This document shows, piece by piece, positions 2,359 to 56,939 of a stretch of DNA of 64,000 nt. The notes below the pieces were generated by a model. The model saw only the letters and a program-made list of their open reading frames with translations. It ran no database searches and was not told where the DNA came from. This DNA is from a virus. The stretch lies in IMG/VR virus record IMGVR_UViG_3300042485_001470, positions 1 to 64,000 of that record; one strand, given 5' to 3'. Numbering within the stretch: the stretch's first letter is position 1; each line of letters begins with the position of its first letter. The translations under genes were made by a program, and so were the position numbers.

Positions 2359-3525
2359 ATGGCATTAGAAACATTGATATATCCTGGTTCATCTTCATTC
2401 TTTCCAGGTCAGACTCCTTTTGGAATTTATGATAATGATTATGAGTTTCAAGAAGATGCTCCAAAAGTGGCACTTTGGTGTGCTAGAAGATTGGGCTATC
2501 CTATTCAAAACATAGAATTAATAGATGAAAACTTCTATGCATGCTTCGAAGAATCGGTATCAGAGTATGGGGCACAAGTAAATCAATTCAATATTCGTAA
2601 TAATTTGGATTCGGTTAAGGGCAAATCAAAATCAACAAATCTTACAAGCAAATTAGTTCAGGGTTCAAATCTTCCTAACCTAATAGCAATTTCCGATGCG
2701 TATGGTACATTGGCAGGTGTTGGTGGTAATACTGATATTAAGAAAGGATTTATTGAATTGGTGCCCGGTCAACAAGAATATGATTTAGATACTTTATTTT
2801 CGGCTGTTAGTGAAAGTGGGAAGCGTATTGAAGTAGTTAAAGTATTTCAAGAACCAGTACCTGCAATTAATAGATTCTTTGACCCTTATTCAGTTTCTGG
2901 GCAAGGTACATTGAACTTAATTGATGAGTTTGGATTTGGTTCATATTCACCGGCTGCACAATTTATATTGATGCCAATGTTTGAAGACCTTCTTAGAATA
3001 CAAGCAATTGAATTCAATGACCAATTCAGAAAATCGGCATTTACTTTTAATATTGTGAATGGTAAGATGAGAATATTCCCAATACCAACATCTCAAAATA
3101 TGAACCTTTATGGTAAATTATATTTTGATTATTATGTAAAAGATGACTTTACTGAAAATTCAACAACTGTAACCCCAAATGTAATATCTGATTATTCTGA
3201 TATACCATATAGTTTTATGGAATATGGTGGAATTAATGATGTAGGTAAGCAGTGGATTAGAAAATACTCATTAGCTTTGGTAAAAGAGTTGTTAGGAGCA
3301 ATTAGAGAAAAATATTCATCAATTCCAATACCTGGTTCTGAAGTAAGTTTGGATGGAGCTGCATTACGAAGCGAAGCTCAGACTGAAAAAGAAGCACTAA
3401 TGACTCAATTAAGAGAAACATTAGAGGAGTTAAGTAGAAAAGTTCAATTTGAAAATCGTAACAATGAAGCTAACCAACACCAAGAAATGTTGAGAAAAGT
3501 TCCATTGGCAATATACATAGGATAA
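2359..3525 (+). CDS. Neck / head-tail adaptor protein (T4 gp13-like)
   Basis: RRLGYPIQNIEL..NFYACFEE..SEY and WIRKYSLALVKELLG..REKY..IP.PG..V.LDG motifs; position after capsid. Confidence 0.75.
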   Translation: MALETLIYPGSSSFFPGQTPFGIYDNDYEFQEDAPKVALWCARRLGYPIQNIELIDENFYACFEESVSEYGAQVNQFNIRNNLDSVKGKSKSTNLTSKLVQGSNLPNLIAISDAYGTLAGVGGNTDIKKGFIELVPGQQEYDLDTLFSAVSESGKRIEVVKVFQEPVPAINRFFDPYSVSGQGTLNLIDEFGFGSYSPAAQFILMPMFEDLLRIQAIEFNDQFRKSAFTFNIVNGKMRIFPIPTSQNMNLYGKLYFDYYVKDDFTENSTTVTPNVISDYSDIPYSFMEYGGINDVGKQWIRKYSLALVKELLGAIREKYSSIPIPGSEVSLDGAALRSEAQTEKEALMTQLRETLEELSRKVQFENRNNEANQHQEMLRKVPLAIYIG

Positions 3526-5404: not shown

Positions 5405-5787
5405 TGAGTAGAGTAGTTCCAAATATTAATATAGATACCACACAAAAGTTGAGGGATAGAGCCGGATTTAAAGAATTTGTATTAAGAGTTAATACAGATA
5501 CCTTTACATATTCACATAAACCAAATACTATTTCTTTGGAAAATCAAACATTTTTCACACTAACTTTAGAAAATAAAAGATTTATTTTTGATATATTAGA
5601 AGTTGATGATGTCACAGACTATGTTGATGTATATTTATTTGGAGTAAAACAACCACAAGATAGATATAATGTTGAAGTTGTTGGAAATAATATAATTGTT
5701 ACATTCACCGCTGATATTACAAGGTTACCAAATCAGGTATCGGCTGCAGATTTTGAAATAAAAGGTAAAATAGTAGAAATAGTATAA
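5404..5787 (+). CDS. Hypothetical virion protein (same small domain family)
   Basis: VDVYLFGVKQ...DFEIKGKI; coupled by TAATG overlaps on both sides. Confidence 0.6.
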   Translation: MSRVVPNINIDTTQKLRDRAGFKEFVLRVNTDTFTYSHKPNTISLENQTFFTLTLENKRFIFDILEVDDVTDYVDVYLFGVKQPQDRYNVEVVGNNIIVTFTADITRLPNQVSAADFEIKGKIVEIV

Positions 5788-8700
5788 TGGCAAGATTGAT
5801 ACCTCGTAAGCAGATTGAAGAACAACAAAATATTAGTAGTTCATTTTCGGTAGGACAAGACCTTACTGTAGGTAGGGATGTTGTTATATCTGGGTCTTTG
5901 TTTGTTTCCCAAAGTTTTTTTATGGGAAACGATACTGGTTCACGTAATGAACTAACTGGTTCGGTATTTCTTACTGGTTCTTTAACAATAGATGGTGATT
6001 TATTTGTAGGAGCTCCTGATACTGTTTTATCTATTAAGGCAAGTGGTTCTTTGATTTCAGATGATACTCAAAGATATGCTGGTATTCTTGCAAAAGATTT
6101 TGGTGCTAACTTACCTACACTTTATGTATCTTCAACCGATGGGGATGATACAAACGATGGTAGAACAATTCAATATCCACTTCGTACAATTAAAAGAGCA
6201 GCTCAATTAGCATCTCCAGGGTATGATGGTAGATATGGTTTTGATACCGGTTCGGTTTCAAACGGATATGTAATTAAAGTACAAGCGGGAACGTATTTAG
6301 AGGATAATCCTGTAATACTTCCTTCCAACACAACCATTTGGGGTGCTGGTTTGCGTATTACCAAAATTAACGCTAAAAACCCCACAGAAGACCTATTCCA
6401 TGTAAACTCTGGATGTTATATAGCAGAGGTAACGATGGGAGGTTTGAGATTATTCCCAGACCAAATAAATCCTGAAAAAGGATTTGCGGTAGCTTTCCAA
6501 CCCGGTGCATTTATTACAACATCACCATATACGCAAAACTGCTCGCAGATTTCAAACCAAGAAAATTCATTCACCGAACTTTACGAAGAAATTCCGCCAG
6601 GTGGTGGAGGTCTTTATGTTAATGGTGATGTGATACATCCTGATTCTCCATTGGCTTCAATGGTATTGGATGCTTATACGCAGATTTCTCCAAATGGTGT
6701 GGGTTGCTTGGTAAATGGTAGGGGATTCATTCAGCTGGTATCTTTCTTTACCAACTTCTCATATTATGCTATTAGAGTAAACAATGGTGGACATGCTACA
6801 CTAAACAACTCAAACATTTCGTTTGGTTTATATGGTATGTATGCATCTGGTTCTCGCTTTATTTCTGGTAGTGGTGGAAACATCGATGCTAGAAATAGAG
6901 TAAGAGGAAGTTGGAGTGTGGTGGTTGATGTTCTTAATAGAGGATTAAGTGCACTTCCTGAAATTACAACTTTGAATACGGCAGAAGGTATTCGTGCAAC
7001 ATCTTTATCTCAATATCCTCAATTATATCTTTCTGGTAGTGAAATATCATTAACACCAACTACACAAAATATTGAAGAAGTACAATCTGATTTTAAATTG
7101 GTATCTGCTATTGTAGAAAATGGTACATCTGATTTTCCAACTCTTTTAGCAAGAAGTTCTAACAAAGGATATGGATTTGAATCTCCTTATAATATTTTAG
7201 GAGCTGAACAAATTACATCATCAATAGCATCGGCATCTGCTGAAATTTTAACTGATATAAGTGAATCGTTTGGAGCTATATTAAGTATATTTGCAAATGG
7301 TACTGGTTCTTTTAACTTTGTATCAAATACAAAAAATGCTATTAAAGCAACTCAATTAGAACCAACTGCAATTGGTATGTCTGTTTCAAATAGTATTACT
7401 GCTAGTGTTAGTTCATCATTTGAAACGGTAATATCAATTATATCTTCTGGATTAACAGCAGTTCCAAAAGTAACTTCATCAAACGAAGCCGCTATAAAAG
7501 TTTCTGGTGTAGAACAATTTACAACTGGATTATCATCATCTTTACAAACAACCAATAGTGTAAGTGCAAGTTTTAGCATAATTTATAATATTTTGGATAA
7601 AGGAACTGGTAGTGTAATATTACCAATACCTCAAAATCATCAAAAAAATTATACAATAACTAATAATAATAGTTCATCGTATCAATGGCAAGGTGTGGGT
7701 TCTAATCCAACAATAACACTATATAGAGGTGAAACTTATAAATTTTATGTAAGTGCATCTAGTGTATTTGGTGGTATCAACTATCCATTTTTTATTAGAA
7801 CAAAACCTGTTAGTGGGATTAGTGAACAATTTGATTATGATAAGGGAGTGGTAAATAATGGGGATAGTGTTGGTAATATAACATTTACTGTACCATACGA
7901 TGCTCCTAATGAATTATATTATGTTGCACAAAATACTGATAATATGGCTGGAAAATTCCATATTATTAATAATTCAGCAACTCCATTTGATTTAATATCA
8001 AATACATTAACATACCCACAAACAATAAGCGGTAGTACAGAATCAACATCTAATATAGATAAGTTAAATGCTTACGAACTTCTTATTGGAAATAAATCTT
8101 TTATTGAAGAAGAAACAATTCAGTTTGTATCATCTTCTTGGTCTGATTTTGAATATGTTGAATCAACTTGTCGTAGAGATATTGGATTCTTAATAGACGC
8201 AGTAGCTAATGACCTTATATATGGGGGAAACAATAATAGTATTACCGCTGGTAGGTTTTATTATGAATACCCATCAACAGCAACTACAACACAAAAAGAC
8301 CCAACCAAAACTGCAGTTAAGTATGCAGCTGGTATGGTTCAAAAAATATTAAAAGGTGTAACTTTTGTTGAACCAAATAATGAAAGAGATGCCGTAGCAA
8401 CTGCTATACAGGCAAATAGAGAATTTATACAAACTGAAACAATAACTTTCCTTTCATCATCTTGGAGTAACTTCTATTATAATGAAGCTAAGTGTAAGAG
8501 AGATGTGGGATATATTTTAGATGCGGTAGCAACTGATGCTAGATATGGTGGTAACGAAAGGTCTGTACAAGCAGGTCAATTCTATTACTTATATCCATCA
8601 TTAGCAGTTGTTGATGGTGATGGTGATTCTGAAGGTCAATTAGGACAAACTTTAGATGGTGTACGTTTTGCAGCTGGTAATACTAATAATATAGTAGCTG

Positions 8701-11700
8701 GAATTACACACCAAACTGCATCATTGAATGTTAGAGAATCATATAGATTATTAAGAGAAAACAAAGAATTAATTCAAAACGAAACAATTCAGTTTATCAA
8801 TGTAGCATATCCTCAATTAAAATATAACCAAGACAAATGTAAGAGAGATGTTGGTTATATAATTGATGCAATATCAACTGATTTATTATATGGTGGTATA
8901 GAAAGAAGTGTAACGGCTGGTAAATATTATTATGAATATCCATCGCAAGCTACAAAAACTCAAAAAGTAGAAACTTCTGGTGGTATAAGATACGCTAAAA
9001 TTATTTCTGACTTTATTGTTCAAAATATTGTTTTAGAAACTCCACGTATTATTACTAATGATGAAAAATTAATTAAAGTAGTAAGTGGTAGTAGCAATAT
9101 TACATCTTCATTTAGTGGTACTATTAATGAGCAAAATTCTATTAGTAGTTCATTTGCTATTATTGAAGGAATTATAAAAAGAGGAACAGCAGCAGTACCA
9201 TCCATATTAGCACAAAATAGTGATTTGAATTGGAGTGTTGGTCTTCCATTGAGCGTTACGGGTCAAACACAAATAACCAATTCATTTGTATCACCTACTG
9301 AAGTAGAAAAATTAGGAAATGGGTTTGATGTGGTAACATCTATACTTCAAAACAATGGAGCTGAGCCTGTATTAACATCATCGGTAGAAGGACAAATTAA
9401 AGTAACAAATAATGAACAAATAACAGGTTCATTATCAAACTCATATACATCATCAATATCAGCATCATTTGGATATGTTGTTGAAATTATAAGTGGTGGG
9501 TTATCAAAGTTAGACACAATCGTTTCTAATGCATCGGCAAGTATTAAAGTAACAACAACTCCTCAATGGACAAGTGGTGTGGTTGGTACAAATTCACAAA
9601 CAGCAAGCATTAGTTCTTCATTTGGAAGTATCATAAATGTAATTGTTAGTGGAACGGCAGCATTACCAACTTTAGTACAAAATACTAATACAAATAGAAA
9701 AGTAACTTCAACACCACAATTTATATCAGCATCTTATAGTGGTAGTTTGGAGGATATAGCATTTGTATCGCAATCTATTTCTAAAGTAACTCAAATAGTT
9801 GAAACCGGAAATGTAGACCTTTTTGCAAAAACAAATTATTCAGCAACTATTGCTGCTAGAGTTGGGGTGTATGAAATATTAAAACAAAACATTCCATTTA
9901 TACAAAACGAAACAATTGCATATCTAAGTTCGTCTTGGGCTGGATTCCAATATGATGAAGTTAAGTGTAAGAGAGATATTGGATTGATTGTTAGTGGAGC
10001 AGCTGAAGACCTTTTATTTGGTGCTAATTCCGCATCTATTGTAAACGGACAATTCTATTATGAGTTCCCATCATTAGCAACTATTGGAAATGATGGTGAC
10101 ACTGGTGGGCAATTAAATCAAACTTTAGATGGTATTAACTATGCTAGTAGATTAGCACAAAAAGTAATTACACAAGGTATAACGTTCAGTTTACCATCAA
10201 CAGAAGTATCCGCATCAAACGCTTTATTATTCAATAACAAAGAGTTTATACAAAATGAAACTATTGCATATCTATCTTCTTCTTGGAGTGGATTTGATTA
10301 TAACGAAACAACTTGTAAAAGAGATGTTGGTTATATTATTGATGCGGTAAGAACTGATTTGGTATATGGTGGAAATGAAAGAAGTAGACAAGCTGGTTTA
10401 TATTATTTCCTATATCCATCACAAGCTACTGGTTCACAATTATTGCAAACAACCGATGGTATCAAATATGCATCACAAATCTCACAAAAGATAATTAGTG
10501 GTTCTATATTCCAATCTGCTGATTCTGATAAATTGGAAGTAAGTAGATTGATGAGATTGAACAAAGGACTTATTGCTGATGAGGTTGTTGAGTATGTATC
10601 ATCTTCTTGGAGCCAGGTTTCATATAATGAAGCTAAGTGTAAGAGAGATGTTGGATATATTATTGACGCAGTAAGAACTGATTTAGTTTATGGTGGTAAT
10701 GAAAGAACATCTAATGCAGGTGAATTTTATTATCGATTCCCATCATCAGCAACCGTTGGAGGAGAACCATCGGCAACTCAGCAATTAGACCCAACTGTAA
10801 CTGGAGTTGAATATGCAAATCGTTTAGCACAAAATATAGTTCAAAATAAAGTATTAGTTAATCCATCTACGGAAGTATTAGCAGCGGCTCAATTAGTAAG
10901 AACCAATAGAACATTCTTACAACAAAACGTAATACAATTTATTTCTCAAAACTATCCTAATTTAGATTACATAGTTTCCAAATGCTTCAGAGATGTTGGA
11001 TTCATTACTGATGGGGCTGTAACTGATTTGGTATATGGTGGAAACGAAAGAAGTATAAACTCTGGAAGATTCTACTTTAAGTTTGCTAGTAAAGCAACTG
11101 GTGACCAATTAGTTGAAACTGTAGCTGGTATTAACTTTGCTAAAGATTTGGCTAAGTTAGTAGCAATTGGTGGAAAGGCTGTTGAAGATGGATATGATAA
11201 TGTTTCTAAAATAATAGCAAGCGGAAGTTCATCAGCTCCTACGTTGATAACAAATACTGAAAATGCAATTAGAAAAACAGTTGAGCAACAATTCACATCA
11301 AGTCAAAGTGTTCAATCATCTGATAGGCAATTAGTATCTGCATCATTTGCAAATGTAATTACTATAATTTCAAATGGTACTGGTTCTATACCAACAATTG
11401 TAGAAAGTTCTAATAGAGGTATATTAGTAACAAGTGGTTCATATCAAATAACATCATCAATAACTCCATCTACAATTGATATTAATAAAGTTGTAAGTGG
11501 ATTTGATATTGTAACTAATATAATTGAAAATGGTACGGGTTCATTACCTACATTGGTTAAGAATACTCAAAATAATATTAAGAGAACTGATTCAATTCAA
11601 TTCACTTCAACTGCATCAATTTCTAATACTATTATTTCAAGCTCTAATACGGCATTTGATAATGTATTATTAATTGTATCTGAAGGAACTGGTTCAACAC

Positions 11701-14700
11701 CACAATTGATTAAGAACACTACCAATTTAGTTAAGGTAACAAACTCTACACAATATATTGGACCGGCTGCAGTTTCTGCATCTAAAGTTAATAGTATTAC
11801 TGGAAGTTTTGATACTATTATAAGAATATTGGAAAATGGATTGGGTAGTTCTCCTGTAATTTTAAACAATAATAATGCAAATATAAAAGTTACGGGTACT
11901 ACTAACTATGTATCATCATCATACAATGGTACACAAACACAAGCATCATTTATATCAGCATCTATTTCGATAGTTACTAATATAATTGCAAATGGAAGTG
12001 GCAGTTTACCAACTATAACTCTCTATACATCATCATTATCATCATCCGCTGTTTTAGATGCGTATAACATATTAAAGAATCATATACCATTTATTCAGGA
12101 TGAAACTATTGCTTACTTAAGTTCTTCTTGGAGTACGGCATCTTATGATGAACAAAAATGTAGACGTGATGTTGGATTGATTATAAGCGGTGCAGCTGAA
12201 GACCTTTTATGGAATTCTAATTCATCATCAATAGTGAATGGTAAGTTCTACTATGAGTATCCATCACAAGCACAGGGTGCACAATTGAATCAAACATTAG
12301 ATGGTGTAATTTACGCAAGTAGATTGGCACAAAAAATAGTATTGAATACACAATTTGCTTTACCAACATCTCAATCCAATTTGGCTTATGATTTGTTAGT
12401 ACAAAACAAGCAACTTATTCAAAATGAAACTATTGCTTACATTAGTTCTTCTTGGAGTACACATCAATATAATGAGATAACTTGTAAAAGAGATGTAGGA
12501 TATATTTTAGATGCGGTGGCAACTGATATTAAGTGGGGTGGTAACGAAAGAAGTGTAAAAGCTGGGCAATTCTACTACCTATACCCATCTGCAGCAACTG
12601 GTTCTCAAATAGAAGAAACTGTAACTGGTATAACTTACGCAAAGAATCTATCTGATAGAATCCTAAGACGATTAATATTACAATCAGTTTCTCAAAATAA
12701 ATTACAAGCTAAGCAACTTATTTTCAATAACAAAGAATTTATACAAAACGAAGTTATTGAGTATGTATCAGCTAGTTGGAACGGATTCCTATACAATGAA
12801 GATACTTGTAAGAGAGATGTAGGATTCATTTTAGATGCAGTGGTAACTGATGTGGTCTATGGTGGAAATGAGAGAGCCTTAGAAGCTGGAAGATATTATT
12901 ACCTATATCCATCTGAAGCAACTACAACTCAATTAGGTCCAACCCTGAGCGGTATTAGACATGCAAAGGGAATGGTTGAAGAAGTATTGAATAATTCAGT
13001 ATTTGTAACCGCATCTAATTCAGCACAAACGGCTTACAATTTATTATTAGACAACAAACAATTAATACAAAACGAAACAATCGCATTTGTAAGTTCTTCT
13101 TGGAGTATGTTCAATTACAACGAAGCAAGTTGTAGTAGAGATACTGGATACATTGTAGATGCAGTAGCAACTGATATTCTTTATGGTGGAAACGAAAGAG
13201 TAAGAGAAGCGGGTGAGTATTATTACTTATATCCATCGTTGGCAACGGTTGATGGTGATGGAGATGCGGCTGGGCAATTAGGACAAACTTTAGATGGTGT
13301 AAACTACGCTAAAGGAATTTCTAAAAAGATAGTATCAAACATCTTATTACAATCAGCAAGTATTTCTGAATTAACTGGTTGGAGTTTATTAAGACAAAAT
13401 AAACCATTAATTCAAAAAGAAACTATTGCTTATTTAAGTTCATCTTGGACTGGAGTTGATGGTTTCTATTATAACGAAGCAAGTTGTAGTAGAGATGTTG
13501 CTTACATCATTGATAATGTAGCAACTGATTTATTATATGGTGGAAACGAAAGAAGTTCTAAAGCTGGAGAATACTATTTCTTATATCCTTCAAAAGCAAC
13601 GGTTGGTGGAGTACCATCGATTAATGCACAATTGGAACAAACTGTACAAGGTATTAGATTTGCAGCAGGAACTGCACAAAATGTGTTATCAAATACATTA
13701 TTAGAACAACCTACGCAATTCGTATCATCTTCAGTAAGTTTATTGAGAAGTAATAGAGGATTTATCCAAAATGAAACTATACAATATATAGATGCATTCT
13801 TCCCTAGCTTAGTTTACAATAGAGAAAAATGTAGAAGGGATGTTGGATACATTATTGATAACGTATCTACTGATTTATGGTATGGTGGAAATGAGAGAAG
13901 TATTATAGCTGGTGATTACTATTATCGTTACCCATCTTTAGCAACTAAGCAAGAGCAAGTAAGAGAAACTGTAGCTGGTGTTGAATACGCAAAAGCAGTA
14001 TCAAAAGCAATTGTACAAAATGTATTATTACAAACTCCATCTTTGGTTTCAAATACTGATGGTAATATTAAAGTAGGTAATGTAGCACAAATAACATCAT
14101 CGTTATCAGCTACAAATACTCAAATATCAAATATTAGTTCATCTTTCTCAACCGTAACAAAAATTATTGAAGGTGGTTTGGGTGTGTTACCAACTATTGT
14201 TTCTAATAACGAAGGTTTAATAAAAGTAACAAACGAAACACAAATAACATCATCAATATCAGCATCATCTGCTGAAGTTGGTGTTGTAACAGCATCATTT
14301 GGATTGATTAGAGATATAATCTATTGGGGTTCTGCTTCATTACCGGATTCATTAGCTAATAACTTCCAATATGGATTTAATAATAGTGTACCAACATTAT
14401 TGCGTATTTCTTCATTCACTCAAACATTAGGAAGTGGTGAATATAATGCACAAACTTCAAGCGTAAGTTCTTCATTTGGTAATGTGATTAATGTTATCAA
14501 CAACGGAACGGCTTCATTACCAACATTAGAAGCTAATACATCGGCAAGTGTAAGTGTAAGTGGTATTACTACATTCAAATCAACAACATCTGGTTCTGAA
14601 TATCAAAAAAGTAGAATTGGAAACTTATTTGGTGTTGTTATGAATATAGTTGAGAGTGGTAAAAGTTCTATACCTGTATTATTATCAAATACATCAGCTA

Positions 14701-17700
14701 GTATTAAAGTAACAAATACTCCACAAATTATTAGTGGTAGTGGTAGTGATAGATTGCAAGCAAGATTAGTATCATCATCATTTGGTATTGTAATAGATTC
14801 ATTATTAAATAATGGTACTAGCTCAATTGCTTATGTTGGACCAACTGGAATTAATACAAATGCAAAAATAACATCTGCATATAATTTGTTATTAAATAAC
14901 CAACAAATGATTATAGATGAAACTATAACTTATATGAGTTCGTCTTGGAGTGGATTTAATTACACTCAATCATTATGTGAAAGAGATTTAGGATTGATTA
15001 TTAGTGGAGCAGCATTTGATTTATTGTGGGGTGGTAATTCGGCATCATTAGTAAATGGTAAATATTACTTTGAATCAGCATCACAAGCTACTGGTTCACA
15101 ATTAGACCAAACAATTACAGCAATTAGATATGCTGGTGGAATTATTGAAAAGGTTGTTAGAAATACACCATTGGTACATATTTCAGCATCATTACAAACA
15201 TCAGCATCTTATACATCATTAATTAAGAACAAAGGATTCATACAATCTGAATCAATTGCTTATGTGAGTTCTTCTTGGGAAGGATTTATGTATGATGAAA
15301 TTAAATGTGCTAGAGATATTGGTTATATTGTAGATGCGGTAGCAACCGATTTACTATATGGTGGAAATGAGAGAAGTATTGTAGCTGGAAGATATTATTA
15401 TGACTTCCCATCACAAGCTACTTCAACTCAATTAGAACCTACATTGACTGGTGTAAGATACGCTAAAGGAACGGCAATGAATGTTGTTGTTAATAAACAA
15501 TTCTTCTCACCAAACTCAAATAACCAAACTGCTTATAACTTAATCAAAGATAATAAGGAGTTCATTCAGGAAGAAACTGTAGCATTTGTAAACGCTAAAT
15601 ACCCTGAATTGGATTACATCGAATCTAAGTGTAGGAGAGATGTAGGATTTATTGTAGATGCGGTAGCAACTGACCTTCTTTATGGTGGAAATGAAAGAAG
15701 TAACAAAGCTGGTGAGTTCTATTACTTATATCCATCTTTAGCAACTGAAAATGAGCAAGTAGTTGAAACAACAACTGCGGTTGATTATGCTAGAAGATTA
15801 ACACAAAATATTATTAATAGTGTAGTAATACCTACACCACAAATAATATCTAATACTCAAAATAGTATTAAGGTAACAAATACACCTCAATATTTGAGTT
15901 CATCATTTAGTGGTAGTGTATATGAAGCATCATTGGTATCAGCATCAATTTCAATTGTAACAAATATTGTAGCAAATGGTATTGGTGTAGCAGGAAGTCC
16001 TGTAAATTATACAACACCATCAACTGCATCAAACGTTTGGTACGCTTACAACTTATTAAAAGAGAATATCGGATTCATCCAAAACGAAACTATTGCATAC
16101 ATTAGTTCTTCTTGGAGTACGGCATCTTATGATGAGGCTAAATGTAAGAGAGATGTTGGTTTAATTATTAGTGGTGCGGCTGAAGATATGTTATTTGGTG
16201 TAGATTCTGCATCGATTGTAAATGGTAAGTTCTATTTCGAATCAGCATCACAAGCAACTGGTGACCAATTAAATTATACATTGGATGGATTGTTTTACGC
16301 AAGTAGATTAGCACAAAAAGTGGTTAGAAACGTAGAATTTGTGACAGCATCTTTATTAGTATCTGCATCTTACGCATTGATGAGAAATAATAAATTATTT
16401 ATCCAATCGGAATCCGTAGAATATGTTGATTCTTCTTGGGTTGGATTGGATTATAATAAAGAAAAGTGTAGAAGGGATGTTGGTCATTTAATTGATGCAG
16501 TTTCAACTGACCTTTTATATGGTGGAAACGAAAGAAGTGCGATAGCTGGGGAATACTATTTCAAATACCCATCAGAAGCTACAACGGGTTCTCAATTAGA
16601 CCCAACGGTAGATGCTATTGATTACGCAAGTGGTTTAGCAACTAAAGTAATTCAAAGTTTAACATTTGTAACCGCTTCTCAAATAGTATCGGCATCGGTT
16701 GGATTGTTGAGAGGAAATAGAAACTTCATACAGGAAGAAACAATGGCATACTTAACTGCTAGTTGGAGTACTTTTGATTATGATAAAGTAAAATGTAGAA
16801 GGGATGTTGGATACATCATTGATGGTGTAGCAACTGATTTACTATATGGTGGAAACGAAAGAAGTGTAATGAGTGGTGAGTTCTATTATAGATACCCATC
16901 AAAGGCAATACTATTGGGTGATGGTGATGGAGCTGGACAATTAAAACAAACTGTTGATGGTATAAACTACGCAAGTAGAGTAGCACAAAAAGTTGTTAAG
17001 AATATTGAATTCATAACCGCATCATTACAAGCTTCAGCATCATTTGATTTATTGAGAAAAAATAAATCATTTATAGCAGCGGAAACAATAGCTTATGTAT
17101 CTTCATCTTGGAGTACTGTTTATTATAATCAAGCTTCTTGTTCTCGTGATGTTGGATACCTAATAGATGCAGCAGCAACTGATGTACTTTATGGTGGTAA
17201 AGAAAGAAGCGTAATAGCAGGAAACTTCTATTATCTATTCCCATCTAAAGCAACAAATGCTGGAGTACCTTCTGAACAAAATCAATTAGACCCTACAATT
17301 ACTGGTGTACGATATGCTGGAAGATTGGCAACTAAAGTTGTAGTAAATCCAAAATTTGTAGAAGCTTCTGGTTCTGCAATTGGTGGTAGTAAGTTACTAC
17401 AATTAAATAAATCTTTAATTCAAAAAGAAACTATAACATTCTTAAGTTCTTCTTGGAGTACTTTACAATACAACGAAGCAAGTTGTTCTCGTGACGTAGG
17501 ATTTATTATAGATGCGGTTAGAACTGACTTAGTTTATGGTGGTAATGAAAGAAGTATTGAAGCAGGTTCATACTACTACAAAATTCCTTCGGTAGCAATT
17601 AAAGAATCTTATACTGATAACGGTGGTGTTGGACAGAAAAAACAAACTGTTGATGGTGTAAACTACGCAGGAGGTATATCTGAAAAGATTGTAGCACAAA

Positions 17701-18341
17701 AACAATTGTTAAGACCTGGTACCAAACGAATTGAAGCTACTAATAGATTAAGAGGAGCTAAAGAGGAATTAAAACAAAGAGCAATTGGATACACAAACGG
17801 AGCATTCCCTTACTTAGTTTATAACGAAGCAAGTTGTTCTCGTGATACCGGATTAATTGTGGATGCTTGTTGTACTGATTTATTCTATGGTGGAAACGAA
17901 AGAGCAATCGCAGCAGCATCATCATATTATACAGGACAATACGGAAATGCAGATGAGGTAATATTTAAACAAAGACTAGAAACTCTTGAAACTAATAGAT
18001 ATTTAAGAACTAGAGCAGAGTTTATAGCAGCTGGAGCACCTGTTGAATCATTTGGTTCTCTAATTGTGGCAACTGGTATTGACTACTCTTATAATGGTAG
18101 TGGTGTGACATTTAAAGCACTTCCTCCAAATCAGGGTGGTAGTGGTGTTGCTAATCCAGCATTTGAAATTACCGAATTGGGTGGTGGTAGAATCTTCTTT
18201 ACCTCTGGTAACCAAGATGGTGACTTTAGAATTGGTACTGGTTTAAGTATTAATCAGGCAACTGGTACTCTTGTGGGTAGAACATTTAGTAAATCTCTAT
18301 TCTCATTAGTAACTCCGTTCTCATTGGCACTACAAATATAA
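5787..18341 (+). CDS. Giant virion protein (4184 aa): N-terminal pectate-lyase-like beta-helix, degenerate cupredoxin-like domain, 22 C-x-R-D helical repeats
   Basis: LYVSSTDGDDTNDG...PLRTIKRA...IKVQAGTYLE..P beta-helix start; repeat consensus YNE.KC.RDVGYIIDAV.TDLLYGGNERS..AG.YYY.YPS. Confidence 0.8.
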   Translation: MARLIPRKQIEEQQNISSSFSVGQDLTVGRDVVISGSLFVSQSFFMGNDTGSRNELTGSVFLTGSLTIDGDLFVGAPDTVLSIKASGSLISDDTQRYAGILAKDFGANLPTLYVSSTDGDDTNDGRTIQYPLRTIKRAAQLASPGYDGRYGFDTGSVSNGYVIKVQAGTYLEDNPVILPSNTTIWGAGLRITKINAKNPTEDLFHVNSGCYIAEVTMGGLRLFPDQINPEKGFAVAFQPGAFITTSPYTQNCSQISNQENSFTELYEEIPPGGGGLYVNGDVIHPDSPLASMVLDAYTQISPNGVGCLVNGRGFIQLVSFFTNFSYYAIRVNNGGHATLNNSNISFGLYGMYASGSRFISGSGGNIDARNRVRGSWSVVVDVLNRGLSALPEITTLNTAEGIRATSLSQYPQLYLSGSEISLTPTTQNIEEVQSDFKLVSAIVENGTSDFPTLLARSSNKGYGFESPYNILGAEQITSSIASASAEILTDISESFGAILSIFANGTGSFNFVSNTKNAIKATQLEPTAIGMSVSNSITASVSSSFETVISIISSGLTAVPKVTSSNEAAIKVSGVEQFTTGLSSSLQTTNSVSASFSIIYNILDKGTGSVILPIPQNHQKNYTITNNNSSSYQWQGVGSNPTITLYRGETYKFYVSASSVFGGINYPFFIRTKPVSGISEQFDYDKGVVNNGDSVGNITFTVPYDAPNELYYVAQNTDNMAGKFHIINNSATPFDLISNTLTYPQTISGSTESTSNIDKLNAYELLIGNKSFIEEETIQFVSSSWSDFEYVESTCRRDIGFLIDAVANDLIYGGNNNSITAGRFYYEYPSTATTTQKDPTKTAVKYAAGMVQKILKGVTFVEPNNERDAVATAIQANREFIQTETITFLSSSWSNFYYNEAKCKRDVGYILDAVATDARYGGNERSVQAGQFYYLYPSLAVVDGDGDSEGQLGQTLDGVRFAAGNTNNIVAGITHQTASLNVRESYRLLRENKELIQNETIQFINVAYPQLKYNQDKCKRDVGYIIDAISTDLLYGGIERSVTAGKYYYEYPSQATKTQKVETSGGIRYAKIISDFIVQNIVLETPRIITNDEKLIKVVSGSSNITSSFSGTINEQNSISSSFAIIEGIIKRGTAAVPSILAQNSDLNWSVGLPLSVTGQTQITNSFVSPTEVEKLGNGFDVVTSILQNNGAEPVLTSSVEGQIKVTNNEQITGSLSNSYTSSISASFGYVVEIISGGLSKLDTIVSNASASIKVTTTPQWTSGVVGTNSQTASISSSFGSIINVIVSGTAALPTLVQNTNTNRKVTSTPQFISASYSGSLEDIAFVSQSISKVTQIVETGNVDLFAKTNYSATIAARVGVYEILKQNIPFIQNETIAYLSSSWAGFQYDEVKCKRDIGLIVSGAAEDLLFGANSASIVNGQFYYEFPSLATIGNDGDTGGQLNQTLDGINYASRLAQKVITQGITFSLPSTEVSASNALLFNNKEFIQNETIAYLSSSWSGFDYNETTCKRDVGYIIDAVRTDLVYGGNERSRQAGLYYFLYPSQATGSQLLQTTDGIKYASQISQKIISGSIFQSADSDKLEVSRLMRLNKGLIADEVVEYVSSSWSQVSYNEAKCKRDVGYIIDAVRTDLVYGGNERTSNAGEFYYRFPSSATVGGEPSATQQLDPTVTGVEYANRLAQNIVQNKVLVNPSTEVLAAAQLVRTNRTFLQQNVIQFISQNYPNLDYIVSKCFRDVGFITDGAVTDLVYGGNERSINSGRFYFKFASKATGDQLVETVAGINFAKDLAKLVAIGGKAVEDGYDNVSKIIASGSSSAPTLITNTENAIRKTVEQQFTSSQSVQSSDRQLVSASFANVITIISNGTGSIPTIVESSNRGILVTSGSYQITSSITPSTIDINKVVSGFDIVTNIIENGTGSLPTLVKNTQNNIKRTDSIQFTSTASISNTIISSSNTAFDNVLLIVSEGTGSTPQLIKNTTNLVKVTNSTQYIGPAAVSASKVNSITGSFDTIIRILENGLGSSPVILNNNNANIKVTGTTNYVSSSYNGTQTQASFISASISIVTNIIANGSGSLPTITLYTSSLSSSAVLDAYNILKNHIPFIQDETIAYLSSSWSTASYDEQKCRRDVGLIISGAAEDLLWNSNSSSIVNGKFYYEYPSQAQGAQLNQTLDGVIYASRLAQKIVLNTQFALPTSQSNLAYDLLVQNKQLIQNETIAYISSSWSTHQYNEITCKRDVGYILDAVATDIKWGGNERSVKAGQFYYLYPSAATGSQIEETVTGITYAKNLSDRILRRLILQSVSQNKLQAKQLIFNNKEFIQNEVIEYVSASWNGFLYNEDTCKRDVGFILDAVVTDVVYGGNERALEAGRYYYLYPSEATTTQLGPTLSGIRHAKGMVEEVLNNSVFVTASNSAQTAYNLLLDNKQLIQNETIAFVSSSWSMFNYNEASCSRDTGYIVDAVATDILYGGNERVREAGEYYYLYPSLATVDGDGDAAGQLGQTLDGVNYAKGISKKIVSNILLQSASISELTGWSLLRQNKPLIQKETIAYLSSSWTGVDGFYYNEASCSRDVAYIIDNVATDLLYGGNERSSKAGEYYFLYPSKATVGGVPSINAQLEQTVQGIRFAAGTAQNVLSNTLLEQPTQFVSSSVSLLRSNRGFIQNETIQYIDAFFPSLVYNREKCRRDVGYIIDNVSTDLWYGGNERSIIAGDYYYRYPSLATKQEQVRETVAGVEYAKAVSKAIVQNVLLQTPSLVSNTDGNIKVGNVAQITSSLSATNTQISNISSSFSTVTKIIEGGLGVLPTIVSNNEGLIKVTNETQITSSISASSAEVGVVTASFGLIRDIIYWGSASLPDSLANNFQYGFNNSVPTLLRISSFTQTLGSGEYNAQTSSVSSSFGNVINVINNGTASLPTLEANTSASVSVSGITTFKSTTSGSEYQKSRIGNLFGVVMNIVESGKSSIPVLLSNTSASIKVTNTPQIISGSGSDRLQARLVSSSFGIVIDSLLNNGTSSIAYVGPTGINTNAKITSAYNLLLNNQQMIIDETITYMSSSWSGFNYTQSLCERDLGLIISGAAFDLLWGGNSASLVNGKYYFESASQATGSQLDQTITAIRYAGGIIEKVVRNTPLVHISASLQTSASYTSLIKNKGFIQSESIAYVSSSWEGFMYDEIKCARDIGYIVDAVATDLLYGGNERSIVAGRYYYDFPSQATSTQLEPTLTGVRYAKGTAMNVVVNKQFFSPNSNNQTAYNLIKDNKEFIQEETVAFVNAKYPELDYIESKCRRDVGFIVDAVATDLLYGGNERSNKAGEFYYLYPSLATENEQVVETTTAVDYARRLTQNIINSVVIPTPQIISNTQNSIKVTNTPQYLSSSFSGSVYEASLVSASISIVTNIVANGIGVAGSPVNYTTPSTASNVWYAYNLLKENIGFIQNETIAYISSSWSTASYDEAKCKRDVGLIISGAAEDMLFGVDSASIVNGKFYFESASQATGDQLNYTLDGLFYASRLAQKVVRNVEFVTASLLVSASYALMRNNKLFIQSESVEYVDSSWVGLDYNKEKCRRDVGHLIDAVSTDLLYGGNERSAIAGEYYFKYPSEATTGSQLDPTVDAIDYASGLATKVIQSLTFVTASQIVSASVGLLRGNRNFIQEETMAYLTASWSTFDYDKVKCRRDVGYIIDGVATDLLYGGNERSVMSGEFYYRYPSKAILLGDGDGAGQLKQTVDGINYASRVAQKVVKNIEFITASLQASASFDLLRKNKSFIAAETIAYVSSSWSTVYYNQASCSRDVGYLIDAAATDVLYGGKERSVIAGNFYYLFPSKATNAGVPSEQNQLDPTITGVRYAGRLATKVVVNPKFVEASGSAIGGSKLLQLNKSLIQKETITFLSSSWSTLQYNEASCSRDVGFIIDAVRTDLVYGGNERSIEAGSYYYKIPSVAIKESYTDNGGVGQKKQTVDGVNYAGGISEKIVAQKQLLRPGTKRIEATNRLRGAKEELKQRAIGYTNGAFPYLVYNEASCSRDTGLIVDACCTDLFYGGNERAIAAASSYYTGQYGNADEVIFKQRLETLETNRYLRTRAEFIAAGAPVESFGSLIVATGIDYSYNGSGVTFKALPPNQGGSGVANPAFEITELGGGRIFFTSGNQDGDFRIGTGLSINQATGTLVGRTFSKSLFSLVTPFSLALQI
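8060..18030 (+). repeat. Array of 22 ~100-110 aa C-x-R-D repeats in five clusters (3,4,6,3,6) separated by a second S/T-rich repeat type
   Basis: Counted by eye in the translation; spacer consensus IKVT.T.Q..S...SSSF..V..II.NG..SLP.LV.N. Confidence 0.85.
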
Positions 18342-18367: not shown

Positions 18368-19291
18368 ATGGCAGAAGTTTTTGTACCACTAAATCGATTC
18401 CAGTCAGTTGTAACAAATCTGACTGGTGAAGAAGATGAAATATATATAACACCTTTAGGTGTATCATCAATTGTGCTATCAGCTCAAATTACAAATAATA
18501 GTTTGGTTACACAACCTGTAACTATTTTTGTAACATCAAATAGAGAATTACCTGTACCATCATTTGAAGGTCTTTATATTGGTTCTTCTTTTTATACTGG
18601 TTCTACATCTTTAGAAAATTTTAGTGGAAGTTTTGATAGCGCATCTGCACTTCTTACTTTGAATAGACAATTTATTCGTAAAGAAGTGGCAGCATACACA
18701 TCATTTCAAAATAATTTGCAAGAAACTCCATTTACTTTTGTATCTTCTCGTTTTGAAGATTATGCATTAGGAGCAACTGATGCAGTTGCATACGATATAG
18801 CAAATTCAAAAACAATTAGAACGGATAAAGAGGCTAAAAATTATTTTTCAAAAAATGGTGTTAATACTATTAAAACTTTTTACGATGAAGAATATTCATC
18901 ATCTTTATTTGCTTTAGATTATATCGGAAAATTAGCAGGACAAATTATAAAAAATCAATCAGTAACAGGTTCATCTGAAATTGGTAGATTATATCAAACA
19001 GCAGTAACTCAATCATTTAATTCAACGCTTGCTATAAGCGGTTCTGCATGGAGTGGTTCTAATTTTGTTATAACGGAATTATTGGGTGTTATAAGAGATA
19101 CAATAGAAAATCCTAATTTGGTAGCACAACCACCCATAAAATTGGTAACAAATGTAACTATACCATCTGCTGACTCACTTTCACCTGTTGTAAGTGGTAA
19201 ATTGGTGTTAGAAGAAGGATATGGATTCATTGTATCGGGTTCAACTGACTTAAGTGTGATTCTTTCTTTACTTGAAAGTGCAAATGAATAA
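18368..19291 (+). CDS. Virion accessory protein: small beta domain (as in 32343..32675) split by an insert containing a Cys-less copy of the repeat
   Basis: IYITPLGVSSIVLSAQITN...KLVLEEG...SVILSLLE flanking LLTLNRQFIRKEVAAY...DAVAYDI. Confidence 0.6.
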   Translation: MAEVFVPLNRFQSVVTNLTGEEDEIYITPLGVSSIVLSAQITNNSLVTQPVTIFVTSNRELPVPSFEGLYIGSSFYTGSTSLENFSGSFDSASALLTLNRQFIRKEVAAYTSFQNNLQETPFTFVSSRFEDYALGATDAVAYDIANSKTIRTDKEAKNYFSKNGVNTIKTFYDEEYSSSLFALDYIGKLAGQIIKNQSVTGSSEIGRLYQTAVTQSFNSTLAISGSAWSGSNFVITELLGVIRDTIENPNLVAQPPIKLVTNVTIPSADSLSPVVSGKLVLEEGYGFIVSGSTDLSVILSLLESANE

Positions 19292-19358: not shown

Positions 19359-22300
19359 ATGGCAATTAGTAATCTATTAACAGGAAGGGTAAGGGTAGTT
19401 TCACCTAAAAATGTAACATCGGAAAGGTATCAGTTTTTGGATTTATCCCAAGCTGAACCAAATTTAGGTGTCCCAAATTTCTCCGCATCACTTTCTGGTT
19501 CTCCAGCTATTGTAGTATCGGATGACCAGGGTAATAGAGCATTTGTACGAAGTTTGGACTTAGATAGAGCAACTGGAGCATTTACAGGCTCATTTACTGG
19601 TTCATTTACTGGTTCTTATTTTGGAGATGGTTCTCAATTATTTAATTTACCTGGAGCAACATTTATAGCAAGTGGTTCGGCAACAGCATCATTTCAACAA
19701 GGTGATTTATTAATTAACACAAACACTAGAGTTCAGGGTGACCTTTACGTTGATGATACAATTTATGCAGAAAGTTTAATTGTAAGTTATATATCATCTT
19801 CGGTAATATATTCATCTGGTTCAAACGTTTTTGGTGATAATTATAATGATACGCAACAATTTACTGGTTCTGTATTAGTTAGTTCATCTATTATTGTAAA
19901 TGATATAACTGCATCTCAATCAATTAGTGGTTCATTCACGGGTTCTTTCTTTGGAGATGGTAGAGATATATTCAATTTACCACAAGCTACTAGATTAGTA
20001 ACAGGTTCGGTAACGGCATCAGTAACACCCGAAGATGGATTTAAAGTAGTTTCAATTGATAGTGGTTCAACTTTTACTGGTTCTCTTTTTGTAAGTGGAA
20101 ATATGACCATACCGTCTGGTAGTGGTTTCTTTAGTGGTAGTGGTGAGGGATTATTCAATATTCCATTATCTGCACTTAATATAGACTCATTAGTAGCTAG
20201 TAGAATTGCAAGTGGTAGCGTTACGGCATCAGTTTCTCCAACCGAAGGATTTAAAGTATTATCGGTTGCAAGTGGTTCAACTTTCACTGGTTCTCTTTTT
20301 GTAAGTGGAAACGTTGTAATACCATCTGGTAGTGGATTCTTTAGTGGTAGTGGTGAAGGATTATTTAACATACCTTTATCTGCACTTAATATTGATTCGT
20401 TGGTATCAACTGAATTGGCAAGTGGTAGTGTAACGGCATCCGTTTCACCTGTATTTGGTTTTAGAGTTGCATCACAAGAAAGTGGTTCTCAATTTACTGG
20501 TTCGATTAATATAAGTGGAAGTTTATTTGTAAGTCCTTTTAGTGGTTCACTACAATTAGCATCTGGTTCAAATTACTATGGTGAGGGACAGTATTTAAGA
20601 AACATACCTCGTTCGGCATTAACTGAAGATGCATTAATATCAAATGAAATTAAATCTGGTTCGATAACGGCATCGGTATCTCCTGATTTTGGATTTAAAG
20701 TACAAACTCCATTTACAGGCTCACAAATTGGTTCTCAATTCACTGGAAGTGTTGATGTAAGTGGAAGTGTTAAAGCATTTACATTTATTGGAGATGGTTC
20801 TCAATTAACAAATGTACAAGCAGCAGCTGCACCTAGAATAGAATCTGGTTCGGTAACTGCGTCTGTTTCACCTAATTTTGGATTTAGAGTAGAATCTGCA
20901 CAAAGCGGTTCTGAATTTACGGGTTCAATTGAAGTAAGTGGTTCTATATTCTTAAATTCGGGTTCTTTTTATTCTGGTAGTGGTGAAAGATTATTTAATA
21001 TACCAAGAGCAGCTTTAACACCAGACGCTTTGTTGAGTGTTGAGATTAAAAGTGGTAGTGTAACTGCATCGGTTTCTCCTCAATTTGGATTTAGAGTTGA
21101 ATCTGCGGATAGTGGTTCTGAATTTACTGGTAGTGTTGATATAAGCGGTTCTATATTCTTAAACTCTGGGTCTTTTTATTCTGGTAGTGGTAGGGGATTA
21201 TTTGATATACCTCGTTCAGCACTTGCTCCTGATGCACTTATATCAAATTTAATTGCAAGTGGTTCGGTTACTGCATCAGTAACTCCTGATTTCGGATTTA
21301 CAGTAGATTCATTAGAAAGTGGTTCTAGATTTACAGGTTCTCTTTTTGTAAGTGGAAATATTGAAATTCTTACTGGTTCATTTAGTGGTAGTGGTAAGAA
21401 TTTAAGAGAAATTCCATTAACAGCTATACCTGATTTAGACCTTTCAAAAATTGGTAGTGGTTCGGTAACAGCATCGATTAGACCTAATGAAGGATTTAGA
21501 GTAAATACATTCTCTACATTTACTGGTAGTATGCTAATATCGGCATCGGCTATATATCTACCAAGCGAATCAATACAAACTGTATTTAACGTAACTAATA
21601 GTGGAATTAGTCAGTATGTTTTTAGCGGAGCAGCTATTGGTACTAACCCAACATTAACTTTAGTAAGAGGTATTACTTATACCTTTAACGTAAATGCACC
21701 TGGTCATCCATTTTGGATTAAAACAATACAAACAACTGGTACTGGAGATGCATATAGTACTGGTGTAACAAATAATGGTGATGATGTTGGTGTAATTACA
21801 TTTACACCAGCCAACGATTCACCATCACGATTATATTATATTTGTCAAAATCATTCAGCGATGAATGGTGTGATTGATATAGTAGATGGTATATTACAAA
21901 GAGGTCCTGATGTTACAATTAGTGGTAGTTTATTCGTAAGTGATAGAATTGTAGCAAGAGAAGTAACGGCATCAATAAGTGCATCTTATATTCAAGGTGA
22001 TGGTGCTGGATTATTTAATATACCACGTTCGGCATTCACTGGTGATTCATTTAGAATCGCATCTGGTTCTGTAACTGCATCTGTTTCTCCTGTATTTGGA
22101 TTTAAAGTAGAATCTACTGAAAGAGGTTCTGAACTTTCTGGAAGTGTTAAAGTAAGTGGTTCAATCGTTGCATCATCTGTAACGGCTGTATCAATGAGTG
22201 CATTTGATATAAGTGGTTCTTTCCAGGGTGATGGTAGTAGATTAACCAATATTGTAATTCCACCATTGGAAACTACACAAATAGCTAGTGGTTCGGTAAC

Positions 22301-56336: not shown

Positions 56337-56939
56337 ATGAAAAAAATCAGTACCCTTATCGGTTTCCTACTTGTTTCTTTAATTTCGTTTGGGCAAGATG
56401 TTAGAATTAAAAACGAAGTATTTGAAGTTCTTTATTCACAATCATTAGAACAACCTTTAGTAATTAAATATCGTTCAACTAATAGACCTACAAATGTGAA
56501 CAGAGGTACTATGGATTTTTACAAAGAACCAAACATTAAAACATCAGATGCGGAAGATTACGCTAAAAATATATACGATAAAGGACATGGTGCACCAGCT
56601 GCAACATTCTCTGATAATATGGTAAACCTAAAACAAACATTCTCATACTTAAATTGTATAATGCAAGACCAATACCTTAATAGAGGTGAGTGGAGATTGT
56701 TAGAAGAACAAATCCGTAAATGGGATGATACTGAAAATATAACTGTACTAATAAAAACATTCTTTGATACTCCAGTAAAAAGAGTGGCAACTGGAGCAGC
56801 AATTCCATCTTACTTACAAAAACACATCTATTTTGAAACACAAAAGAAATGGAGATGTTATGTATTTCTAAATCAAAAACCAAAATTTCATTGGGATGAA
56901 TTAGAAATGATATGCGAAGCTGAAGACCACAAATTTTAA
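56337..56939 (+). CDS. Secreted DNA/RNA non-specific endonuclease (NucA/Serratia-type His-Me finger)
   Basis: Signal peptide MKKISTLIGFLLVSLISFG/Q; YDKGHGAPAA, TF.YLN...Q...LNRGEWRLLE. Confidence 0.85.
   Translation: MKKISTLIGFLLVSLISFGQDVRIKNEVFEVLYSQSLEQPLVIKYRSTNRPTNVNRGTMDFYKEPNIKTSDAEDYAKNIYDKGHGAPAATFSDNMVNLKQTFSYLNCIMQDQYLNRGEWRLLEEQIRKWDDTENITVLIKTFFDTPVKRVATGAAIPSYLQKHIYFETQKKWRCYVFLNQKPKFHWDELEMICEAEDHKF

Follow-up and report, generated by a model that had tools for sequence, protein, structure and literature searches.

A predicted fibre protein of an uncultured freshwater jumbo phage with 22 truncated phycobiliprotein-like domains that may carry bilin

Architecture of the giant open reading frame

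The DNA analysed here, a stretch of 64,000 nucleotides called the window, covers positions 1 to 64,000 of an IMG/VR record of 95 kb (IMGVR_UViG_3300042485_001470), which stems from an uncultured freshwater jumbo phage and is about 53% complete. A giant open reading frame (ORF) at 5787..18341 encodes a structural protein of 4184 residues, in which a core unit of about 110 residues recurs, each time with the motif C-x-R-D. An earlier reading of the letters alone (the sequence-only reading) had counted 22 such repeats in a virion protein and likened them to phycobiliproteins. A regular-expression search finds exactly 22 motifs, one per repeat and all within this ORF. They fall into runs of 3+4+6+3+6 copies, with a spacing of 108-118 residues inside the runs, and Ser-rich stretches of 171-392 residues lie between the runs. 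A second repeated unit, the B unit, is Ser-rich, about 50 residues long, and made of a helix followed by an extended segment. Of the 27 Cys residues of the ORF, 22 belong to the motifs; the N-terminal domain contributes three more and the last repeat two. Its parts, and the ORF that follows it, are these:

5787..18341, plus strand: giant ORF for a predicted fibre-type virion structural protein, 4184 residues (ORF list and translation)
5787..6866, plus strand: N-terminal domain, residues 1-360, with three of the five Cys outside the motifs
6870..7670, plus strand: five Ser-rich helix-plus-strand units (B units), residues 362-628, found by searching the unit profile back (alignment A2)
7671..8036, plus strand: inserted domain of about 120 residues, placed after the fifth B unit and before core 1, where the first hairpin has its tip (read from the translation)
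8061..9071, plus strand: cores 1-3, motif Cys at residues 795, 903 and 1018
9111..9836, plus strand: five B units, residues 1109-1350 (B-unit profile)
9858..11216, plus strand: cores 4-7, motif Cys at residues 1394, 1510, 1618 and 1733; core 4 is the run-opening variant G-L-I-x-S-G-A-A-E-D-L-L
11175..12038, plus strand: six B units, residues 1797-2084 (B-unit profile)
12051..14063, plus strand: cores 8-13, motif Cys from residue 2125 to residue 2682; core 8 is an opening variant
14103..14891, plus strand: five B units, residues 2773-3035 (B-unit profile)
14868..15863, plus strand: cores 14-16, motif Cys at residues 3064, 3174 and 3282; core 15 was modelled
15906..15998, plus strand: single B unit, residues 3374-3404 (B-unit profile)
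16035..18068, plus strand: cores 17-22, motif Cys from residue 3453 to residue 4017; core 17 is an opening variant
18048..18338, plus strand: conserved C-terminal domain, residues 4088-4184, of which PHROG 3442 matches residues 4088-4182
18368..19291, plus strand: downstream ORF of 307 residues with one degenerate core that lacks C-x-R-D (hmmsearch E 9e-4)

The protein matches PHROG 4527 and 5342, both annotated as tail fibre, and PHROG 701, annotated as virion structural protein, with E-values from 1e-69 to 1e-206; the best stretch for PHROG 5342 is residues 112-216, in the N-terminal domain. The gene also sits within a structural module, with an adaptor-like gene (2359-3525) on one side and the tail sheath gene (42011-44338) on the other. 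Both annotation and position fit the virion protein of the sequence-only reading, and judged by these two criteria the protein probably serves as a fibre of the particle. A Pfam scan of the whole protein yielded two sub-threshold chance matches and no family, megablast of the giant gene against phage records gave no match, and searches of PDB sequences with the N-terminal, inserted and C-terminal domains returned nothing significant. The sequence pattern of the N-terminal domain suggests a right-handed beta-helix, and the inserted domain looks beta-rich. Two metagenome fragments (P0028 and P0031) end with a C-terminal tail like that of this ORF.

In two relatives (G010 and G012) a 150-residue gap occupies the position that corresponds to the inserted domain; the domain, which is conserved in both, could be a receptor-binding tip. 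The ORF downstream of the giant gene has syntenic counterparts of 289 and 307 residues in G007 and G012.

Fold of the cores

Repeat 15 reads KCARDIGY at nucleotides 15303-15326, just as the sequence-only reading had it, and the other sequence features named there are equally present: GG follows 11 residues past G-Y in 19 of the 22 copies (alignment A1), and the upstream pattern L..N...I..E is real, with N11, I15 and E18 conserved at 90% or more. Identity of the other units to repeat 15 ranges from 32 to 57%, core 22 being the most divergent copy (32%). Columns Y32, C37, R39, D40, D51, Y67, Q78 and T82 are invariant over the 22 copies, and the first core after each run of B units is a distinct variant.

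An AlphaFold2 model of core 15, built from the 22-copy alignment, has five helices (predicted local distance difference test score, pLDDT, 85.8; predicted template modelling score, pTM, 0.78). When it was compared with the PDB by Foldseek, every match listed down to rank 50 was a bilin protein of the phycobiliprotein type, in most cases a beta subunit, with probabilities of 0.98-1.0 for all but one, template modelling (TM) scores of 0.62-0.72 and E-values of 0.09-0.4. A second structure search, independent of Foldseek, placed the model against 48,161 representative chains. The globin domain of photocobilin (Z 12.0) and far-red allophycocyanin (Z 11.2) came out on top, followed by a phycobilisome core subunit (Z 10.7), the bilin domain of ApcE (Z 10.6) and phycoerythrin (Z 10.3). 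All of these are bilin-binding globins; lower scores went to the pore domains of colicins (Z 8-9) and to haem-sensor globins (Z 7-8). For a single repeat, bilin-binding globins and phycobiliproteins are the best matches of both searches, as the sequence-only reading had anticipated. A search of the ESM Atlas with one core gave no usable match.

The match does not extend to a whole subunit. Model residues 1-101 align to residues 37-142 of allophycocyanin (Z 11.2, root-mean-square deviation 2.6), and the alignments of the core with phycobiliprotein subunits begin at subunit residue 35-38, so that the X-Y helix hairpin has no counterpart. The core spans helices B to G, its roughly 100 residues matching helices B, E, F and G of phycobiliproteins, and it lacks the X-Y hairpin, most of helix A and helix H. 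Of the proposed concatenated array with a globin or phycobilin fold, the fold therefore stands, on two structure searches and the profile comparison described below, while the units turn out to be truncated and not whole phycobiliproteins. As the X-Y hairpin is missing, alpha-beta rings are not expected.

A truncated core inside a fibre protein is also what would be seen if the fold had been reused for purely structural ends. A captured gene for a phycobiliprotein, or for one of the paralogous bilin biosynthesis-associated globins (BBAGs), would then have been multiplied as a rigid helical block for long fibres, with no pigment, and a conserved residue cluster (C/R/D/Y/T) would have been kept for the stability of the truncated fold or for contact with the B units. 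Such structural reuse is the main rival to bilin binding, although we judge it unlikely on the evidence of the following sections.

Remote homology to phycobiliproteins

Because the predicted fold could be biased by the motif, homology was also assessed without any structure model. When 177,635 PDB sequences were searched with the 22-copy profile, only three matched; all were phycocyanin alpha chains, with non-significant E-values of 0.6-1. In NCBIfam, the phycocyanin alpha family TIGR01338 was the sole match, summed and weak, and a profile alignment by HHalign that used the 22 window copies alone reached a probability of 37%, so that a more diverse profile was needed.

Recurrence of the unit nevertheless far exceeds chance. 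An exhaustive profile search of 1.84 billion protein representatives (E <=0.001) found the core in 1332 cluster representatives, with up to 36 copies per protein. The best 150 proteins yielded 1300 near-full cores, which were reduced to 227 at less than 45% identity and compared with 30 allophycocyanin and phycocyanin subunits from five cyanobacterial genomes. With the profile of 228 diverse cores, HHalign now aligned 100 columns with a probability of 95.8% and an E-value of 7.6e-9. C-x-R-D fell on C-x-R-D, and the preceding helix (N...I) and the Tyr before the Cys were aligned as well. Control alignments, in which the subunit alignment was reversed or its columns were shuffled ten times, gave E-values of at least 0.066 and probabilities below 1%.

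Convergence, or an artefact of a short motif that pulls the fold model towards phycobiliproteins, would account for the probability of 37% with the single-family profile (A1), the PDB sequence matches at E 0.6-1 and the absence of a Pfam match. It does not account for an alignment of diverse profiles that spans 100 columns beyond the motif at E 7.6e-9, against 0.066 or more in the controls, or for the agreement of two structure-search methods over model residues 1-101, and we consider it very improbable. The cores are very likely genuine, if remote and truncated, homologues of phycobiliproteins that lie outside the curated boundary of PF00502.

Stand-alone homologues of 62-200 residues also appeared in the protein search. 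Each of them proved to be either a frameshifted piece or part of a long protein that a short contig had cut, and a free single-domain form of the core is unsupported for this reason.

Conservation and joint loss of the motif residues

In phycobiliproteins, the Cys of the motif forms the thioether with the bilin, the Arg contacts a propionate and the Asp contacts the pyrrole nitrogens. The same three are the bilin-binding residues of BBAG-1 and BBAG-3 (PMC10151467). Of the 1300 cores, which come from 150 proteins, 96% have the Cys, 96% the Arg and 98% the Asp, and the motif is intact in 94%; Asp51 (about 100%), Tyr67 (98%) and Thr83 (91%) are near-invariant as well.

The cores that have lost the Cys are informative about which residues belong together. 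We compared 57 of them with 413 equally diverged cores that have kept it. Without the Cys, Arg is kept in 47% of cores (98% with it), Asp in 63% (99.8%), Tyr67 in 68% (99%) and Thr83 in 46% (89%), whereas Asp51 is kept in 100% (99%). Identity to the consensus elsewhere is 37.8% in cores without the Cys and 41.0% in those with it. As Cys, Arg, Asp, Tyr67 and Thr83 are lost jointly, they behave as one unit that is dispensable as a whole, and Asp51 is structural. This pattern points to a joint ligand-binding site formed by the five residues.

For the structural reuse introduced above, these data are awkward. A lone near-invariant Cys (96%) would be unusual in a purely structural role in an extracellular protein, the site residues disappear together while the structural Asp51 stays at 100%, and what is conserved is precisely the triad that holds the chromophore in the parent family (PMC10151467).

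The site could also serve another chemistry, either disulfides between chains or domains that lock the fibre, or the binding of haem, another tetrapyrrole or a metal. One Cys per domain and 22 per chain, on a particle in an oxidising medium, would suit disulfides, and the globin superfamily does include haem sensors, which are among the structural matches at Z 7-8. Haem globins, however, use a proximal His and not C-x-R-D, and the cores have no conserved His. Structure and profile comparisons alike put bilin binders at the top, ahead of haem globins, and a disulfide would leave the coupled Arg, Asp, Tyr and Thr unexplained. We therefore regard other chemistries as improbable, more so than structural reuse.

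Bilin genes in related genomes

The sequence-only reading had reported no genes for bilin synthesis or bilin lyases in the window. There are indeed none, and neither bilin reductase nor haem oxygenase was found in the whole 95-kb contig. The phage, a myovirus, has replication genes of the T4 type. Among isolates it comes closest to Microcystis phage Mel-JY01 (48% identity in the sheath protein, 51.5% in PolB), and it has many uncultured relatives in IMG/VR. The closest long relatives (G006 and G009, with PolB 83% identical) carry a cassette of bilin genes about 57 kb downstream of PolB; their own fibre region would lie beyond their contig ends. Since the contig studied here ends 11 kb after PolB, absence of the cassette is to be expected even if the phage has it.

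Complete relatives speak more directly to a connection between array and bilin. In all four distinct complete genomes that bear the array (G007, G010, G011 and G012), haem oxygenase adjoins a ferredoxin-dependent bilin reductase; the array protein of G012 is 66.7% identical to that of the window. The complete relatives without cores, G008 and Mel-JY01, have no reductase, and G008 also lacks haem oxygenase. The genes for array and cassette are not adjacent, and in G007 more than 100 kb separate the cassette from the fibre gene. As the sample is small and the genomes are related, the co-occurrence of array and cassette is suggestive only. It nevertheless counts against structural reuse, which would leave haem oxygenase and reductase without a purpose known in such phages (PMC11480375). 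In favour of structural reuse, most relatives have no lyase. CpeS was found in none of five relatives.

A further genome, G013, had appeared to be complete and to bear the array but no reductase. Over 15 kb it agrees with G011 at 99.99% identity, and it was set aside as a shorter piece of that virus. The estimates for the two (270 kb and "100% complete" for G011, 168 kb and "96% complete" for G013) suggest that the completeness of G013 is probably put too high.

The photosynthesis gene psbA was found neither in the contig nor in four relatives, which neither proves nor excludes a cyanobacterial host. A search of eight related records for 5-aminolevulinate synthase (TIGR01821) found none.

Cores in cultured phages and light-dependent adsorption

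When two copies of the core were compared by tblastn with 50,697 phage records, 68 matched. The 68 comprise myoviruses of marine Synechococcus or Prochlorococcus and unnamed marine viruses, and no others; the annotations of the matched genes, which are not experimental, read tail fibre, baseplate wedge or structural protein. Four isolates whose adsorption has been described can be compared:

S-PM2: nine cores in two giant proteins; CpeT present, 1.4 kb upstream of one of them; no bilin reductase
P-HM2: five cores; CpeT present; bilin reductase present
P-SSM2: no cores; no CpeT; bilin reductase present
P-SSP7: no cores; no CpeT; no bilin reductase

According to PMC6628666, which cites Jia et al. 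2010, S-PM2 and P-HM2 adsorb only in the light, and P-SSM2 and P-SSP7 also in the dark. The same paper states that the light dependence of S-PM2 is independent of host photosynthesis, and that a light-sensitive receptor or tail fibre has been proposed. The presence of cores and CpeT tracks light-only adsorption in these four isolates, which are far too few for a conclusion. Two features of the isolates speak for structural reuse: S-PM2 has cores and no reductase, and the structural proteins that contain cores are of several kinds (one is the annotated gp7 baseplate wedge of P-HM2), as would be expected of a generic module.

In the S-PM2 record (L328, NC_006820, 163102-175389), tRNA features with the same locus tag are drawn inside the giant core-bearing coding sequence, which looks like an annotation error.

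Pairing of cores with B units

The B-unit profile finds 22 helix-containing units in the giant protein, equal to the number of cores. With B for B units and A for cores, their order is B5 A3 B5 A4 B6 A6 B5 A3 B1 A6, in which the running count of B minus A stays at or above zero throughout and finishes at zero. The order in G012 is identical, and G010 is balanced at 15 and 15. G011 has 13 B units and 12 cores and G007 has 24 and 21, an imbalance that probably comes from B units missed by the profile. In distant family members, many of them with runs of at least 20 cores, the profile detects few B units. Equal counts and a balanced bracket order suggest that each domain is built from two distant segments and that the chain folds into a branched fibre; each core appears to be completed by one upstream Ser-rich B unit, which gives 22 composite domains in nested order.

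A model of a B unit and core 8 as a hairpin (residues 2047-2200) is confident (pLDDT 86.1, pTM 0.82), with a pLDDT of 92-93 for the B helix. A complex prediction of core 15 with its nested partner gave a median score of 0.37, against 0.01 for the best control, with contact agreement of at least 76% and a partner pLDDT of at least 50 in the runs. The mark used in such predictions was reached by 58 of 80 solved complexes and by two of 110 mismatched pairs, and scores of at most 0.60 belonged to seven of the 80 and to both mismatched pairs; we grade the prediction as weak and do not count it as evidence. Replacement of the N-terminal helix of phycobiliprotein subunits by the B helix was also considered and rejected, as no N-terminal helix was aligned: structural alignment of the hairpin model sets in only at its residues 30-39, which leaves the B helix without a sequential counterpart in the subunits.

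Proposed role of the cores

Together, our data suggest a giant fibre-type virion protein with 22 shortened homologues of phycobiliproteins, members of the bilin-binding globin clade, and the balance tips slightly in favour of their carrying bilin. Covalent binding of the bilin by the cores, for which residue conservation, the coupled loss of the site and the co-occurrence with bilin genes in relatives argue, is close to an even call. The bilin would be supplied during infection, by the phage or by a pigment-making host, and would be attached to the Cys of each core, probably without a lyase as in BBAG-1 and BBAG-3, or by CpeT where the phage encodes it. An assembled particle could then hold up to 22 bilins per chain. 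The pigment may fill out the truncated globin structurally, sense light on the adsorption apparatus, or do both. The most specific version of the model, in which bilin-loaded cores form photoreceptor or pigment modules of the virion's adsorption apparatus, with domains assembled from two distant segments into a branched fibre, is correspondingly more doubtful, and we put it forward tentatively.

A number of observations speak against bilin-loaded cores. On the structural side, the Foldseek E-values are weak (0.09-0.4), Z-scores of 10-12 are within the range that helical models can reach without homology, AlphaFold2 may have been steered by the motif, PF00502 does not match the whole protein at E <=0.1 in the Pfam scan, and the core lacks the parts of the phycobiliprotein fold that flank the pocket. 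Phycobiliproteins normally require lyases, and among the four distinct complete relatives CpeT occurs in one and CpeS in none. Genes for bilin synthesis or lyases were found in neither the window nor the contig, which represents about 53% of the genome, and the co-occurrence in relatives is drawn from six complete genomes, all of them mutually related. P-SSM2 has a reductase and no cores, which shows that phage bilin genes are not tied only to the array protein. Finally, cyanophage particles that are coloured or fluorescent have, to our knowledge, not been reported.

If the cores are pigment modules after all, several findings would fall into place. The role of phage bilin genes in non-cyanobacterial hosts has been stated to be unknown (PMC11480375), and BBAG-like acceptors have been raised only as a possibility (PMC11480375, PMC10151467). 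The cores are a concrete candidate acceptor for the bilins made by phage cassettes of haem oxygenase with PcyA, PcyX or PebS, and a possible substrate for phage CpeT. A bilin pigment on the virion may thus explain why such phages encode bilin-making enzymes, and pigment modules would explain haem oxygenase, reductase and CpeT in phages without psbA, possibly with non-photosynthetic hosts. The cores would likewise be a molecular candidate for the light-sensitive tail component that has been proposed for light-dependent adsorption of cyanophages (PMC6628666), and would explain why some cyanomyoviruses adsorb only in the light, independently of host photosynthesis.

Other genes of the window and contig

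The structural module holds three further giant ORFs, at 19359-30638, 32688-41000 and 56939-64000 (continuing to about 64283 of the contig), with 3759, 2770 and 2447 residues; cores were found in none of them. Between 26 and 30 kb, the G+C content rises to 0.44-0.46, compared with 0.33, and long antisense open frames occur, which is typical of simple or Gly-rich repeats. The replication region encodes two tandem proteins of the Mom family of DNA base modification (L002 429-1217 and 1511-2311, at about 75.4-77.3 kb of the contig) and a DruA-like protein of the Druantia family (L002 9726-10937). The recombinase of the contig is RecA and not of the UvsX type.

Comparison with known systems

Bilin-binding globins are known as antenna proteins of cyanobacteria; since 2023 they are also known from heterotrophs, as BBAGs whose function is unknown. 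Our literature search found no published description of a large, conserved family of bilin-globin-type domains inside proteins of virus particles. The closest viral counterparts are giant proteins of T4-like cyanophages, which have the same C-x-R-D core (3792 and 3340 residues in S-PM2, and 4458 residues, annotated as gp7, and 3682 residues in P-HM2). Their annotations call them tail fibre, baseplate wedge or virion structural protein and make no mention of a likeness to phycobiliproteins. These marine phages infect pigment-making hosts, and their cores are fewer (nine matches in S-PM2, five in P-HM2) and scattered, not arranged in long runs.

With the alpha and beta subunits of phycobiliproteins (PF00502), the phage cores have helices B, E, F and G in common, and C-x-R-D lies on the equivalent of helix E, column for column, where the subunits have their chromophore site at Cys81-84. 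They differ in lacking the X-Y hairpin, helix H and most of helix A, so that alpha-beta monomers and trimeric rings are not expected, and in being strung together, 22 copies in one virion chain of 4184 residues instead of free subunits of 160 residues. They add the family-specific invariant residues Asp51, Tyr67 and Thr83, and PF00502 does not recognise them. The bilin domain of ApcE, the core-membrane linker (4xxi; the Z 10.6 match), offers a precedent for a phycobiliprotein-like domain within a long multidomain protein, and ApcE attaches its bilin autocatalytically. In contrast to the phage protein, ApcE has one such domain, with a loop insertion and a differently placed Cys, and is part of the phycobilisome and not of a virus.

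A further parallel is offered by BBAG-1 and BBAG-3, together with the globin domain of photocobilin or photoglobin (8j2y, 8j2w), which are paralogues of phycobiliproteins outside the light-harvesting antenna; the photocobilin domain is the top structural match of the phage core (Z 12.0). Both BBAG-1 and BBAG-3 have the C-x-R-D motif, and their binding of bilins needs no lyase (Rockwell, Martin and Lagarias 2023, PMC10151467). The genomes that encode them also encode haem oxygenase and bilin reductase; the four complete phage relatives that bear the array, a small and related sample, hint at a similar association. BBAGs, however, are single-domain cellular proteins encoded beside the reductase, whereas the phage domains have been multiplied within a virion protein that is encoded away from the cassette.

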